From the IMG/VR virus record IMGVR_UViG_2511231131_000001: DNA of 64,000 nucleotides. One strand, given 5' to 3'. The DNA is from a virus. Taxonomy: Duplodnaviria > Heunggongvirae > Uroviricota > Caudoviricetes. Position numbers and translations under genes: made by a program. The notes below the pieces were generated by a model. It was given only the letters and a program-made list of their open reading frames with translations. It made no database searches and was not told the DNA's origin. Positions 14,800-57,846 of the stretch are shown piece by piece; positions within the stretch are counted from its first letter, which is position 1, and each line of letters opens with the position of its first letter.

Positions 14800-15113
14800 G
14801 TATTTTTAAGTCACGAATGCTATCTTTTCGCATCATATTGACCTTTTAATCGTTCAGGCTTATAGTTCCGCCGTCGTAGCAAATTCTGCGACCGGGTTTA
14901 GCAGCCTGAATGATTGTGCGGACAGCCGCAGATATCCGATATTGCGGTATTTTTGTGTCCGTAAAACCGCGTTACGCCCAAATTATGGTGGGGCGTGATG
15001 GGGAGGCTTCGGCCTGCTGGTTTCACAATCGCCAGTCTGCTAACCCCGTCACGTCCTGCCACCTGTTTAGCAGCGGGTAGCAGGTTGTTAAACCTGATTG
15101 TGAGGCCGTAACT

Positions 15114-16469: not shown

Positions 16470-16538
16470 CGTTTTCTAAGTGCAAAGAATCACCATTTCG
16501 AGCTGGTGATTGAAGGTTGATGCAAATTTGGAGAAAAA

Positions 16539-17339
16539 ATGCAACAAACATTCAATGCGGATATGAATATATCAAACCTTCATCAAAATGTCGATCCTTC
16601 AACCACTCTGCCTGTTATTTGTGGTGTTGAAATTACGACCGACCGCGCTGGCCGTTACAACCTTAATGCTCTACACAGAGCGAGCGGACTCGGTGCCCAT
16701 AAAGCGCCAGCTCAATGGCTAAGAACGCTGTCAGCCAAACAGCTCATCGAAGAGCTTGAAAAAGAAACTATGCAGAATTGCATAGTTTCGTTCGAAGGCC
16801 GTGGCGGCGGCACTTTTGCCCATGAATTGCTCGCTGTGGAGTACGCAGGCTGGATTTCTCCCGCGTTTCGGCTGAAGGTAAACCAGACATTTATCGACTA
16901 TCGAGCCGGAAGATTACAACCTGCTATTCCGCAGAGTCTCCCTGAAGCTCTCCGTTTGGCTGCCGACCTGGCAGAGCAAAAGCAACGGCTGGAGCAAAAA
17001 ATGCTTATGGATGCACCTAAAGTCGAATTCGCCGAACGCGTTGCTACCGCCAGCGGGGTTCTAATCGGCAACTATGCCAAAGTGCTCGGTCTGGGCCAAA
17101 ACTATCTCTTCACCTGGTTGCGTGATAACGGAATTCTGATCGCAACCGGTGAACGCAGGAACGTCCCCAAACAAGAATACATATCCCGTGGGTATTTCAC
17201 CCTTAAAGAAACCGTGATCGATACAAGCAATGGAAGCAGGATTTCTTTCACGACTCGTATAACCGGCAAAGGTCAGAAGTGGCTGATGAAGCGATTGCTT
17301 GATGCTGGTGTGCTGGTACCTGTCGCGGCAACGCGCTAA
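16539..17339 (+). CDS. kilA: KilA (KilA-N plus antirepressor C domain)
   Basis: 266 aa as in P1; RYNLNALHRASG..KAP.QWL KilA-N-like region. Confidence 0.6.
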   Translation: MQQTFNADMNISNLHQNVDPSTTLPVICGVEITTDRAGRYNLNALHRASGLGAHKAPAQWLRTLSAKQLIEELEKETMQNCIVSFEGRGGGTFAHELLAVEYAGWISPAFRLKVNQTFIDYRAGRLQPAIPQSLPEALRLAADLAEQKQRLEQKMLMDAPKVEFAERVATASGVLIGNYAKVLGLGQNYLFTWLRDNGILIATGERRNVPKQEYISRGYFTLKETVIDTSNGSRISFTTRITGKGQKWLMKRLLDAGVLVPVAATR

Positions 17340-17368
17340 CAGACGTAGTAAGAACCACCAGCATTGTA

Positions 17369-18214
17369 ATGCTGGCTAAAGTCACTTTCCTGAGCTGTAT
17401 AACGATGAGCGATTTTACTTTTTCTGGCTATGAATTGGCCTGCTTTGTAACACACTCCGGTCTATCCCGTAGCGCCGGGCATATCCTGTCGCAATGTGCA
17501 AATCTAGCGGCAACAACCAGTGAATACTTCATTCACAAGCCTCACCGCCTGATCGCGGCAGAAACTGGTTATAGCCAATCAACCGTCGTTCGTGCATTCC
17601 GTGAAGCTGTAAACAAAGGAATTCTGTCTGTAGAGATTGTTATCGGCGATCACCATGAACGTCGCGCTAACCTGTACCGGTTTACACCATCCTTTTTGGC
17701 CTTCGCACAACAAGCCAAAAATGCGCTGATTGAAAGCAAATTAAAGATCTCTTCAGCGGCAACCAAGGTTAAAGCTGTTCTCGCTAAGACATTGGCTTTA
17801 TTTAATTTTTTATCCACACCCCCATGTCAAAATGATACCCCCTCCCCCTGTCAGGATGACGTGGCAATAAAGAATAAGAAGTCACAAGTTAAAAAAACAA
17901 AAAGATCAGTTTCCGGCGGTGCCGGAACGAGCAGACTCAAAAAATTGACTTCATGGATCGCTGAGGCAAAAGCAAAGGCTGACAATCTGCGGTTATCCAA
18001 AAAACGCGCTCAAAAACATGAGTTCAAGCAGAAAGTAGAGGCGGCAGCGCGGAAATATGCTTACCTGAAGAACAAGCGTTCTCCTGATATTGGCGGGGTA
18101 TCAAACTTCGATAATTTGCCGCATTGCATGACGGTAAACGAAGCTCTTAATGCGATTTTAGCCAAAAATAAAGATAACGAAAAATGGGGTATACCGGCAG
18201 GATTCAGGGGGTGA
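17369..18214 (+). CDS. repL: RepL lytic replication initiator
   Basis: 281 aa, follows kilA under a C1 operator; matches recalled P1 RepL size and N-terminus. Confidence 0.6.
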   Translation: MLAKVTFLSCITMSDFTFSGYELACFVTHSGLSRSAGHILSQCANLAATTSEYFIHKPHRLIAAETGYSQSTVVRAFREAVNKGILSVEIVIGDHHERRANLYRFTPSFLAFAQQAKNALIESKLKISSAATKVKAVLAKTLALFNFLSTPPCQNDTPSPCQDDVAIKNKKSQVKKTKRSVSGGAGTSRLKKLTSWIAEAKAKADNLRLSKKRAQKHEFKQKVEAAARKYAYLKNKRSPDIGGVSNFDNLPHCMTVNEALNAILAKNKDNEKWGIPAGFRG

Positions 18215-18264
18215 TAGATTGCTCTAATCTGGAGTCACCTGGCGTTTTCAGTTTGAGGTCGGAG

Positions 18265-18510
18265 ATGCAATCTGATTTTTTACAGTTAGCGATCGCTTTT
18301 GCAGGATATGTTTGTATTGGCTTCTGTGTATACATGATCAGCCGAAAAATGCTTGTCGATATCGACCGCAAAGAACGAGCAGAGGAGATCTTAGTATGGA
18401 TTTTCTTTGGCGCGGTCTGGCCATTAGGGATCATGTTTGCTGCAACATTTCTTCTGATGTGGATATTCACCCTTCCAGGTGATTTCTATAGAAAAAAAGC
18501 CAGACATTGA
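18265..18510 (+). CDS. small two-helix membrane protein
   Basis: MQSDFLQLAIAFAGYVCIGFCVYMI...IFFGAVWPLGIMFAATFLLMWIF; RBS GAGGTCGGAG. Confidence 0.4.
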   Translation: MQSDFLQLAIAFAGYVCIGFCVYMISRKMLVDIDRKERAEEILVWIFFGAVWPLGIMFAATFLLMWIFTLPGDFYRKKARH

Positions 18511-18633
18511 TACAATCGTTGCGGGTGCTTGAGGCTATCTGCTTCAGGCATTACCCGAAAAGCAGATAGAAGAAAGCCCCAGATAACATTACGCGTCCTG
18601 CAAGACGCTTAACATTAATCTGAGGCCATATCT

Positions 18634-18840
18634 ATGCTTAGCATACGTAGATTAGCCTCTTACCGACCAAAAGGTCAAGGAGAAGCAGGCTATGAAGCAG
18701 CAAAAAGCGATGTTAATCGCTCTGATCGTCATCTGTTTAACCGTCATTGTGACGGCACTGGTAACGAGGAAAGACCTCTGCGAGGTACGAATCCGAACCG
18801 GCCAGACGGAGGTCACTGTCTTCACAGCCTACGAATCTGA
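18634..18840 (+). CDS. mok-like overlapping reading frame of the hok locus
   Basis: 68-aa ORF overlapping hok out of frame, as in hok/mok/sok loci. Confidence 0.3.
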   Translation: MLSIRRLASYRPKGQGEAGYEAAKSDVNRSDRHLFNRHCDGTGNEERPLRGTNPNRPDGGHCLHSLRI

Positions 18841-18847
18841 AAGGTAA
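18692..18847 (+). CDS. hok: Hok/Gef-family type I toxin, HokD/RelF-like
   Basis: MKQQKAMLIALIVICLTVIVTALVTRKDLCEVRIRTGQTEVTVFTAYESER, near-identical to recalled E. coli HokD/RelF. Confidence 0.75.
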   Translation: MKQQKAMLIALIVICLTVIVTALVTRKDLCEVRIRTGQTEVTVFTAYESER

Positions 18848-18920
18848 GAGACCTGGCGGGGAGAGATCCTCGCCACTCTTCGTGTGTCAGGTATCCTCAA
18901 TGCACCCTTTCCTCTCCAAA

Positions 18921-18948
18921 TAAAAAAGCTCCCGAAGGAGCTTTAAAA
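18921..18948. terminator. intrinsic terminator, bidirectional
   Basis: AAAAAAGCTCC-CGAA-GGAGCTTT between convergent hok and the minus-strand structural operon. Confidence 0.55.
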
Positions 18949-18963
18949 TACAAGGGATGACTC

Positions 18964-19473
18964 TTAATCCCACTCAATCCAGTTGTAGACGATACGAAGT
19001 GACGGGCGCACAGCGGCAGTCACATCTTCGGTACTAAAGTCGATTGCATCACTGTAGATTTTGCAGTCCAACATTTCAATTGTTGTAGCAGCTTTTGTCA
19101 CAGCGTTAACCCCGGAAGATTTGGATTCAGGGGTAGCAGCCATCGTGATATCAACATAGTCCTTCGCCGCAATGCGATCCTTGATGAACTGAAGAATATC
19201 GCCTTCGATAGTCTCCACGCACTGGACCTGGATTTCCCCAGAGTTTCGAATTGGTCCGTGCTGGTTGAACTTCACACCATTCGGACCATAGTCCTCCACA
19301 TCCTCGCGGGTCATTTCAGGAATTTGCGACGTGCGAACCAGTACGCTGATATCTTCATGGCCTGCAAAAGTGAGCTGGAATTCAGAAGATACCAGTCGTT
19401 CGCCTTTGGCCGCGTTGGCAGTATAGCGGCCCTTAATAAATTTACGGTTTCCCTTAGTGTTATTGTGCCCCAT
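18964..19473 (-). CDS. virion structural protein (tail tube-like size)
   Basis: 169 aa; last gene of minus-strand operon downstream of sheath-like gene. Confidence 0.35.
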   Translation of the reverse strand: MGHNNTKGNRKFIKGRYTANAAKGERLVSSEFQLTFAGHEDISVLVRTSQIPEMTREDVEDYGPNGVKFNQHGPIRNSGEIQVQCVETIEGDILQFIKDRIAAKDYVDITMAATPESKSSGVNAVTKAATTIEMLDCKIYSDAIDFSTEDVTAAVRPSLRIVYNWIEWD

Positions 19474-19484
19474 ATAAAATCCTT

Positions 19485-20066
19485 TTACTGGAACGCCCGA
19501 ACAATATCGGAGCTGTTATATATCGAAGAACCGGTCAACTGGAGGTTGACGGTGTTTTTCAGGAAATGCCCATTGCTGTCCCTGGGCGCATCGAGATCGA
19601 AACTTATGTCCTGGATAGCGACATCAATGATGTTGATCCGGCGACCAATGTTTAGCGTCACGCGCTCCGGGATTCGACCACCAATACTGGCATCTTTAAG
19701 TTCCGGGCTAATCATCGCTGACAATGCGGCGATAGCTCCTGAAACCTCCGTGAATGGGTCAAACAAAGCGATGAAAGTTACTGGCAGCGTGAAAGTCGGC
19801 GGTGTTCCCCCTTCCCAAACCATTAAGCTGTTCCAACGGGCAACCGACGTTGTTTCAGTACCAACCTGCGCAAAACCACTGAAGGCACCAGCAACAGATC
19901 CCATGGACATACCGGTAAACGGCGCTTCCCAATTCTGGGCCATGTTCATTGCCGCCCCCTGGCTGATATATCCGGTAACCTGGTACTGAGAGTTCGTTAA
20001 AGTAACTTTCAGAAATGGCGATACACCGTCAGCCTGGCTGTAAACCCCATAAGGAATAGGTGCCAT
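19485..20066 (-). CDS. virion structural protein (hypothetical)
   Basis: 193 aa; operon position. Confidence 0.35.
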   Translation of the reverse strand: MAPIPYGVYSQADGVSPFLKVTLTNSQYQVTGYISQGAAMNMAQNWEAPFTGMSMGSVAGAFSGFAQVGTETTSVARWNSLMVWEGGTPPTFTLPVTFIALFDPFTEVSGAIAALSAMISPELKDASIGGRIPERVTLNIGRRINIIDVAIQDISFDLDAPRDSNGHFLKNTVNLQLTGSSIYNSSDIVRAFQ

Positions 20067-20101
20067 TCAAGTTAAAGGCCGGAGTTCTCCGGCCTCCTCC
20101 T

Positions 20102-20917
20102 TTAGCCAAGGCGCTTACGGCGCAGTTTCATTGACTTTTTGCGGGCAAGTTTTGCCGCGCCGGTCTGGGCTTTTCGACGCGCTTTTTTCAGCGCCGATTT
20201 TTGAGCCGCAGTCAGACGTTTTTTACGCAGGCGTTTACGGATGAGTTTGATCTCACCGTTACGAACAACCTTCTTAAATGCTTCAGTCAGCATTTCATCA
20301 GAAGTGCCAGCAACAACAAACGCCGCTTCTAGTTCGTCGCGGTCGTCGCTATCTAAACCAGCGATAGAGGCACCAACATCAGCAGCTGCGTCGTCGTCTT
20401 CATCGTCAGCCAGTGCTTCGATCAGGTCATCATCTACACCGCATGCTGCGAGGAAGTCAGCAACATTTGCCCATGCTTCGTTATAGGCATCGTCCTGTTC
20501 TTCTGAAACTTCGGAGTCGTCGTCATCAGAGATACCAGCGATAGCCTGAACGAAACCATCAAGGGAGTCGAAAGTCAGATCACCGCTATCAGCCCAGGCG
20601 AAAACGGCGTCGGCCGCATCACTCAACGCATTTTGCATAGCACTTCGATTTGCAGCTTCCAGAATCATCTGGTGCGCCTGTTCGACGGTCCATTCTTTAC
20701 CGTCTTTCCCTTCCAGGATTTGCTCAGGAGCCTGGGCAGATGGAACGTTATCGTTAGTCTGTGCCGCCGGTTCCGGATTATTATTAATAACCGGATCTGT
20801 TGGCGGTTCAGCGCTTGCTCGGGCAGACTCCATCAGCTGCACAGGATCAGAGTTCAAAGCGAAACGAGACAGTCCATTCCCCAAAAATGCCCCGGATTGA
20901 AAAAAGTTTTTGCTCAT
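20102..20917 (-). CDS. acidic protein with strongly basic C-terminal tail (scaffold/internal-protein-like)
   Basis: D/E-rich middle, C-terminal KLIRKRLRKKRL..KKARRKAQ..RKKSMKLRRKRLG. Confidence 0.4.
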   Translation of the reverse strand: MSKNFFQSGAFLGNGLSRFALNSDPVQLMESARASAEPPTDPVINNNPEPAAQTNDNVPSAQAPEQILEGKDGKEWTVEQAHQMILEAANRSAMQNALSDAADAVFAWADSGDLTFDSLDGFVQAIAGISDDDDSEVSEEQDDAYNEAWANVADFLAACGVDDDLIEALADDEDDDAAADVGASIAGLDSDDRDELEAAFVVAGTSDEMLTEAFKKVVRNGEIKLIRKRLRKKRLTAAQKSALKKARRKAQTGAAKLARKKSMKLRRKRLG

Positions 20918-57244: not shown

Positions 57245-57466
57245 ATGCAATCCATTAACTTCCGTACCGCGCGTGGCAACCTTTCTGAAGTGCTCAACAA
57301 TGTTGAAGCCGGGGAAGAGGTTGAAATCACCCGCAGAGGCCGTGAGCCAGCAGTAATTGTCAGCAAGGCTACTTTCGAAGCCTACAAAAAAGCGGCGCTG
57401 GATGCTGAATTTGCATCCCTGTTTGACACCCTGGACTCCACCAACAAGGAACTGGTTAACCGATAA
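57245..57466 (+). CDS. phd: Phd antitoxin
   Basis: [56 protein letters not shown]... matches recalled P1 Phd; 1-nt overlap with doc. Confidence 0.9.
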
Positions 57467-57846
57467 TGAGACATATATCACCGGAAGAACTTGTTGCGCT
57501 TCATGATGCGAATATAAGCCGCTACGGCGGCCTGCCGGGAATGTCTGATCCGGGTAGGGCAGAGGCCATTATCGGGAGAGTTCAGGCCAGAGTTGCCTAC
57601 GAAGAGATCACCGACCTTTTCGAAGTCTCCGCCACCTACCTGGTGGCTACAGCGAGAGGGCATATATTCAATGATGCCAATAAGCGTACCGCGCTAAACA
57701 GTGCGCTGCTATTTCTACGCCGTAACGGGGTGCAGGTATTTGATTCACCTGAACTGGCAGACCTTACCGTAGGCGCTGCGACTGGCGAGATATCTGTATC
57801 TTCTGTCGCCGACACGTTACGTAGATTGTATGGTTCTGCGGAGTAG
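57466..57846 (+). CDS. doc: Doc toxin (Fic-fold kinase)
   Basis: 126 aa; Fic-like motif [10 protein letters not shown]. Confidence 0.9.

Follow-up and report, generated by a model that had tools for sequence, protein, structure and literature searches.

Analysis of a 64,000-nucleotide stretch of viral DNA (the window, taken at its full length) revealed a hok/mok/sok type I toxin-antitoxin cassette of the HokD/HokW subfamily in the slot between repL and bplB of a P1-like phage-plasmid. We put the probability that this cassette is complete and follows the classical mechanism of the family at about 80%. The locus is complete and not decayed, and it is a common and already annotated member of a well-understood family. 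The features identified are listed in Table 1.

Table 1. Features of the hok/mok/sok locus and its surroundings. Positions are those of the window unless a sibling locus is named.
Feature	Position	Strand	Basis or remark
repL	17369..18214		left neighbour
Variable segment, 693 bp (81-aa ORF and hok/sok cassette)	18229..18921	.	BLAST against NC_005856
hok promoter-like site: TAGAAA, 16-nt spacer, TACAAT, TG before -10	18489..18516	+	promoter scan
Predicted full-length hok mRNA	18523..18946	+	5' end by homology; 3' end uncertain
tac-like 5' end element	18523..18534	+	MFE pairing with 3' element
Putative Sok antisense RNA gene, 71 nt	18572..18642	-	homology: 933W sokW annotation mapped by alignment
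mok-like ORF, 68 codons, +1 frame relative to hok	18634..18840	+	ORF list; GAGG at 18622..18625
Candidate Sok promoter: -35 TTGACC (18678..18673), 18-nt spacer, -10 TAATCT (18654..18649)	18649..18678	-	family alignment
hok toxin gene (51 aa)	18692..18847	+	Pfam, HokD identity; AAGGAG at 18677..18682
G+C-rich 3'-UTR hairpin; IS186-family target in siblings	18854..18875	+	fold -16.3 kcal/mol
IS186-family insertion sites	18859..18869; L006 3465-3475/4815; L016 and L025 at 778		sibling insertions
fbi-like 3' element, complementary to mRNA 5' end	18895..18907	+	MFE fold, cross-locus comparison
P1-backbone hairpin (bplB terminator)	18925..18944	.	variable-slot right edge; possible weak hok mRNA 3' end
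bplB	18964..19473	-	right neighbour
phd	57245..57463		in window
doc	57466..57843		in window

The 51-amino-acid open reading frame that a sequence-only reading of this DNA had named as a Hok/Gef toxin is present with exactly the sequence quoted there, and alignment to the family matched Pfam PF01848 (HOK_GEF) from end to end (model positions 1-42 of 42, E 2.4e-22, 78.7 bits for a cut-off of 22). The protein also matched PHROG 251 'MokW-like host killing' (E 4.9e-32). With the NCBIfam Hok subfamily profile the score was 49.5 bits, below the 73-bit cut-off. The near-identity to HokD/RelF claimed in the same reading was confirmed, with 48 of 51 residues (94%) shared with HokD of E. coli K-12, and identity was 92% both to HokW of phage 933W and to the Rac-type Hok. 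Cysteines C15 and C30 are conserved in this comparison. The protein fits the family description of a small membrane toxin of some 50 aa with a hydrophobic helix at its N terminus and conserved cysteines. Among 66 unique HokD-type sequences, collected from 80 viral contigs, Rac and 933W, the hok frame is intact in every one. Within the gene the Tyr47 codon TAC followed by G (18830..18833) forms a TadA editing motif, and the equivalent codon of K-12 hokD is reported to be edited to cysteine at about 6% (PMC12214031). A tRNA-Arg-like hairpin was looked for around TACG, and no stable local hairpin was predicted.

Analysis of the region upstream of hok revealed that the structured leader proposed earlier is present at full length. 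The plus strand of 18523..18697 matched all 157 positions of the Rfam RF01794 model, with 114.9 bits against a gathering score of 59 (E 2e-25). Though named 'sok antitoxin', this model matches the hok-sense strand and stops at the hok start codon, and the match therefore documents a complete hok leader and not Sok. RF01794 is in practice a hok-leader model, with the true Sok on the opposite strand within it, and automatic annotation from such a match puts Sok on the wrong strand and makes it more than twice too long. The promoter-like site of hok ends 7 nt upstream of the base aligned to the first model position (18523); at the equivalent position the Rac phage carries TAGAAA/TAGAAT.

The upstream mok-like frame, described in the sequence-only reading as overlapping and out of frame with hok, was recovered as such. 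It is preceded by a Shine-Dalgarno sequence, GAGG, 8 nt 5' of its start, and this start aligns with that of 933W mokW. No Pfam match, including DUF5431, was found for its product. The mok frame is open in 66 of the 66 unique HokD-type sequences and begins with ATG in 65 of them. Its register relative to hok varies, being out of frame in 13 sequences (68 aa, P1 and Rac type) and in frame in 52 (a 70-aa N-terminally extended Hok, 933W type), and therefore the amino acid sequence of Mok, judged by these frames, appears not to be conserved across the HokD/HokW subfamily. The register is set by a one-nucleotide difference in the Sok -35 region (18673..18678), which reads TTGACC in the window and TTG-CC in 933W.

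A Sok-like antisense RNA had been expected opposite the mok start, and a Sok gene with its own promoter is supported on the minus strand by homology to sokW of 933W, by the predicted fold and by an aligned promoter. In its predicted fold the Sok RNA begins with 15 unpaired nucleotides, continues with a long hairpin (-29 kcal/mol) and ends in a U-rich tail; it is complementary to the mok Shine-Dalgarno sequence and the mok start codon (18634). The candidate promoter falls within the minus-strand interval 18600-18700 in which a search had been proposed. In a column-by-column alignment it corresponds to TTGCGC-17-TATCCT of L093, an R1-like locus, and to the Sok promoters of five other plasmid loci; the conserved GGTAAGAGGC spacer and the GGGGCTTTCTTC tail are aligned as well. 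This promoter was placed from the family alignment instead of from the generic promoter scan, which did not call it because the -10 hexamer TAATCT matches only three of six consensus positions.

Folding of the mRNA, proposed earlier as a check for tac/fbi-type elements, gave a predicted pairing between its two ends. In the MFE structures of both 18523..18912 and 18523..18946, bases 18523-18534 are paired with 18895-18907, and when the last ~40 nt were removed the 5' end of the hok mRNA was predicted to refold as a local hairpin. Locking and refolding of the 5' end in this manner has reportedly been described for hok mRNAs by Gerdes and co-workers. Nine loci of phage or plasmid origin were compared, and the segment that best complements the 5' end of the mRNA was found 47 nt past the hok stop in the window and 47-53 nt past it in the eight other loci. 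The paired bases are GGGUGC/GCACCC in the HokD type versus GGCGC/GCGCC in the plasmid type, which constitutes a U-A to C-G compensatory change.

The 5' element is conserved in 63-66 of the 66 unique HokD-type sequences. Within this set no covariation was found at the tac-fbi helix because its pairs are almost invariant, so that support there comes from conservation and not from covariation, and the only compensatory change is the one relative to the plasmid-type loci. Across the same sequences, 93% of the pair cells predicted in the MFE structure are standard pairs, compared with 36-42% when the partners were slid, and double-sided changes were seen at 13 pairs compared with 3-6. The 14-nt duplex of the two ends has an energy of -21 kcal/mol, whereas shuffled sequences averaged -15 and reached -22.6 at the lowest; this control is weak, and the duplex energy is therefore not standalone evidence.

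The hairpin in the 3' UTR shows compensatory changes at 18862/18867. In three sibling elements (L006, L016 and L025) an IS186-family element, IS421-like in pYLMB15b, lies 22 nt past the hok stop (18869). The IS186-family insertion carries an 11-bp target duplication, GGGAGAGATCC, and splits hok from the 3' locking element. Insertions of IS elements inactivate hokC and hokE of K-12, to which the 3'-UTR insertion in the siblings is a parallel. The sibling site matches the IS186B site GGATCTCTCC reported for pSvP1 (PMC6906374). In Rac (L004 2848-2928, approximately 18855..18935 of the window) the hok 3' UTR together with the terminator gave a weak Rfam match to isrK, an Hfq-binding sRNA that comes from Salmonella prophages, at 33 bits and below the gathering score of 50; in the window no isrK match reached the gathering score.

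The statement in the sequence-only reading that a terminator follows hok did not hold for a terminator of the cassette itself. The hairpin at this place belongs to the P1 backbone (bplB), being identical in P1, 673R5 and SJ46, and it is scored as a terminator on the minus strand only, where it is well suited to end transcripts of the tail operon. Read in the hok direction, it folds with -11 kcal/mol and is followed by UUUAAAA, with three U. Over the next ~600 nt the plus strand yielded no further terminator, and this hairpin is the only candidate for the hok mRNA 3' end. The lambdoid hok homology stops at 18907, directly after the 3' element. A strong intrinsic terminator lies within ~10 nt of the 3' element in Rac and in six of the six plasmid loci examined, whereas no intrinsic terminator of its own follows the 3' element in the window cassette, nor in 933W. 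Judged by this comparison, the native terminator of the cassette is lost; what adjoins the cassette is the P1 bplB hairpin, a weak terminator for transcripts coming from hok. The 3' end of the hok mRNA, and with it stability and processing, may differ from the model. The hokW locus of 933W, with no obvious terminator, still works as a toxin-antitoxin pair (PMC8621323).

Comparison of the window with P1-like elements revealed the boundaries of the variable segment. Over 16500..20500 the identity is 99.4% with 'Punavirus P1' MH422554 and, in two blocks, 97.5% with reference P1, and the region 18100..19050 is 100% identical to the E. coli plasmid pSA186_4. In the BLAST comparison with NC_005856 only 16500-18228 and 18922-20500 align (98.4% and 96.5% identical). 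These flanks are collinear with P1 repL and bplB, and the exchangeable segment between them takes the place of rlfA-rlfB-pmgF (1,826 bp) of reference P1. The left boundary falls within the C1 operator Orlf and leaves the first 11 of its 17 bases in place; the right boundary is formed by the A-tract belonging to the bplB hairpin, and the P1 backbone resumes at 18922. The placing of the locus between repL and the structural operon in the sequence-only reading is thus borne out by these neighbours, and its limits of 18511 and 18948 fit the lambdoid-homologous block 18511..18907 together with the bplB hairpin. Pfam gave no match for Mok, RepL or BplB.

The repL-bplB segment corresponds to 'variable region 5' of P1-like phage-plasmids (PMC9603915), and the substitution was listed by Venturini et al. 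as '2 orfs including antibacterial toxin' (PMC6906374). Literature searches on P1-like elements together with hok turned up no paper that treats the locus as hok/sok, that 'antibacterial toxin' table entry being the only mention found. The gene is called hokD in RefSeq and MokW in one phage record of GenBank. As public records label only the toxin ORF, mok, Sok and the mRNA end elements can be added to the annotation. About 514 PLSDB plasmids bear this repL, and 261 of them have the whole arrangement; among complete E. coli genomes it was found in 234 of 5,426. The hok/sok cassette is the commonest state of the repL-bplB slot and reference P1 is a minority form; the locus is thus carried by roughly half of the sequenced P1-like plasmids, many of them with resistance genes. 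The phd and doc genes were also found (57245..57843), in agreement with the proposal that the element carries two addiction modules, and a second module beside phd/doc may help to explain the persistence of P1-like plasmid prophages.

Given the sequence parts, their homology and the pairing predicted between the mRNA ends, the locus would be expected to follow the classical course in its expression, RNA half-lives, processing and killing. From a weak promoter a stable hok mRNA some 390-420 nt long would be made, inaccessible both to ribosomes and to Sok as long as 18523-18534 is paired with 18895-18907. Slow trimming at the 3' end would strip the 3' element, upon which the 5' end would refold locally and the mok start would be exposed, and translation of mok would permit that of hok. 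Short-lived Sok (the complement of 18572..18642), made from a constitutive promoter, would pair across the mok start, and the duplex would be destroyed. When Sok synthesis ends, the stored mRNA would be translated and the 51-aa Hok would damage the inner membrane. Sok synthesis might stop upon loss of the plasmid prophage, upon transcription shut-off by an infecting phage or upon prophage induction. The most likely result would be killing of plasmid-free cells, adding to phd/doc. The maintenance of near-identical copies of the cassette in 261 plasmids counts in favour of the complete-cassette reading, and the lack of post-segregational killing by the intact chromosomal hokA, hokB and hokC (10.1101/2025.08.07.668861) counts against it, as do the lost terminator and the poor consensus match of the Sok -10.

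Comparison with known systems separates the window locus from truncated relatives. The K-12 hokD gene (relF) of the Qin prophage encodes the nearly identical toxin described above, and RefSeq therefore names the window gene hokD. However, K-12 hokD lies directly after relBE, aligns only from window position 18678 onward and gave no Rfam leader hit; the promoter, the 5' element, the mok start and the sok gene are all missing from it. The window locus has all of these upstream parts and a full leader, so it is not a truncated relic like K-12 hokD; the sequence-only reading had named a truncated leader and a missing antisense gene as signs of such a relic, and a full leader and, by homology, a Sok gene were found instead.

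The closest relative outside P1 is a Rac-type prophage (MN652886), together with similar lambdoid phages, with 90.5% identity over 18511..18907. It has an out-of-frame mok and the Sok promoter TTGACC-18-TAATCT, both as in the window, but it has its own strong terminator, CCCGCTTCGGCGGGTTTTTT, 7 nt past the 3' element, which the window lacks. R1 hok/sok and the IncF/IncI loci (hok, flm/srnB, pnd) correspond to the window in architecture and in all named RNA elements. They too are matched by the Rfam leader model. The promoter of Sok and its terminator tail can be aligned between them and the window, the spacing between the stop codon and the tac/fbi complement is the same, and mok is in the +1 frame, as in L092. 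Their toxins are only ~40-45% identical to the window Hok. The window further differs from the R1-type loci in a Sok hairpin that is 16 nt longer, in an mRNA 5' end of GGGUGC instead of GGCGC with the matching change in the 3' element, and in having no terminator of its own.

The nearest tested relative is hokW-sokW (mokW) of the Stx2 phages Sp5 / 933W, of the same HokD/HokW subfamily. The 933W locus is 86.5% identical at the nucleotide level over 18511..18907 and 92% identical in protein, and its leader, 71-nt Sok position, Sok promoter layout and 5'/3' complementary elements all correspond to those of the window. Like the window, 933W has no obvious terminator of its own past the 3' element. 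It differs in that its mok is in frame with hok (70-aa extended Hok), whereas that of the window is in the +1 frame, and in that its host element is an integrated lambdoid prophage and the window a plasmid prophage. The Sp5 locus is a verified type I toxin-antitoxin system with a 71-nt sokW and partial dependence on RNase III and Hfq; HokW is toxic and is neutralised by sokW expressed from its own promoter (PMC8621323). After mitomycin C, sokW vanished and HokW appeared ~1 h before endolysin, and in the deletion mutant growth arrest came ~40 min later and phage release was half as large (PMC8621323).

The phage-plasmid setting is suited to asking for which role hok/sok was selected, whether maintenance, phage release on induction or defence. 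With the Sp5 precedent (PMC8621323), it is possible, though we hold it only tentatively, that the same parts and mechanism were selected for the phage life cycle, Sok being lost on induction and Hok weakening the membrane early so that more phage is released. The window locus belongs to the same subfamily and lies in an inducible phage genome near lytic-replication and tail genes, which is in favour of this role. On the other hand, P1 has an elaborate lysis system and reference P1 does well without hok, the effect in Sp5 was only two-fold, and a fall of Sok on P1 induction is proposed purely by analogy.

Abortive-infection defence, in which a lytic phage would stop transcription, Sok would decay and Hok would kill the cell first, is a rather unlikely selected role for the same parts and mechanism. 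The RlfA and RlfB proteins that occupy this slot in reference P1 (L003 2384-3549) match the PADLOC candidate anti-phage pair PDC-M04A/B (E 1e-95 and 1e-51), and the slot therefore behaves as an accessory or defence site, alternating between a candidate defence pair and hok/sok. RlfA/RlfB are annotated as 'possibly associated with lytic replication'. R1 hok/sok is said to exclude T4 (Pecota and Wood, in 1996), although the effect was reportedly modest. PADLOC gave no model matching Hok or the 81-aa ORF, and no enrichment of hok near defence systems was seen in a survey preprint (10.1101/2025.08.07.668861). For a plasmid prophage the most direct expectation is the killing of plasmid-free segregants, with which assistance to lysis upon induction and defence by abortive infection are both compatible as extra roles.

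Analysis of sibling elements revealed forms in which mok and hok are replaced. In vB_EcoM-673R5 (L008 1500-2155) and SJ46 (L009 2523-2775), corresponding to window 18399..18657, the hok promoter, the 5' element, the entire Sok gene and the Sok -10 are retained, and divergence begins at ~18657, with a minus-strand phrog_7522 gene where mok and hok would be. In both, TTGCTC lies 18 nt upstream of the retained TAATCT. Compared with the window, the Sok part of SJ46 is 86% identical and the 5' element part only 59%. The hok-less 673R5-type form was found in 83 PLSDB plasmids. The retained Sok could be an orphan antitoxin, or its hairpin could be reused as a terminator for the phrog_7522 gene. That the repL-bplB slot is a swap site for conflict modules (hok/sok, PDC-M04-like rlfAB and phrog_7522) in which an orphan Sok is purposely kept as an anti-addiction device is improbable in our estimate; such a Sok could neutralise hok mRNA made by a P1 plasmid with hok already in the cell, and would act when incompatible P1-like elements displace each other.

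The siblings also bear on whether the locus, though intact in appearance, is functionally inert and a neutral passenger of the P1 lineage, which we consider very doubtful: the native terminator is lost, chromosomal hokA, hokB and hokC were inactive in the killing assays of the preprint cited above (10.1101/2025.08.07.668861), and hok is dispensable, given siblings that have lost it (83 plasmids) or in which an IS separates it from the 3' element, but no part holds a disabling change, hok is intact in 66/66 sequences, the helices keep compensatory changes, recurrent IS or deletion knock-outs are expected for an active, costly gene and not for an inert one, and the close relative hokW-sokW is active (PMC8621323).

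Other features of the element were recorded. The 81-aa ORF of the variable segment (18265..18510, plus strand) has two predicted membrane helices, matches phrog_3772, belongs to no Pfam family and is restricted to P1-like phages. It lies just 3' of the half-kept C1 operator (18218..18234), which reads ATTGCTCTAAT and is then divergent. A hairpin with a T-run (18467..18482) is located within the 3' end of this ORF, just upstream of the hok promoter. Standard P1 features occur at 14860..15066, 35369..35519 and 37523..37595, namely the C4 antisense RNA with its a1/b1 targets (immI) and three tRNA genes.
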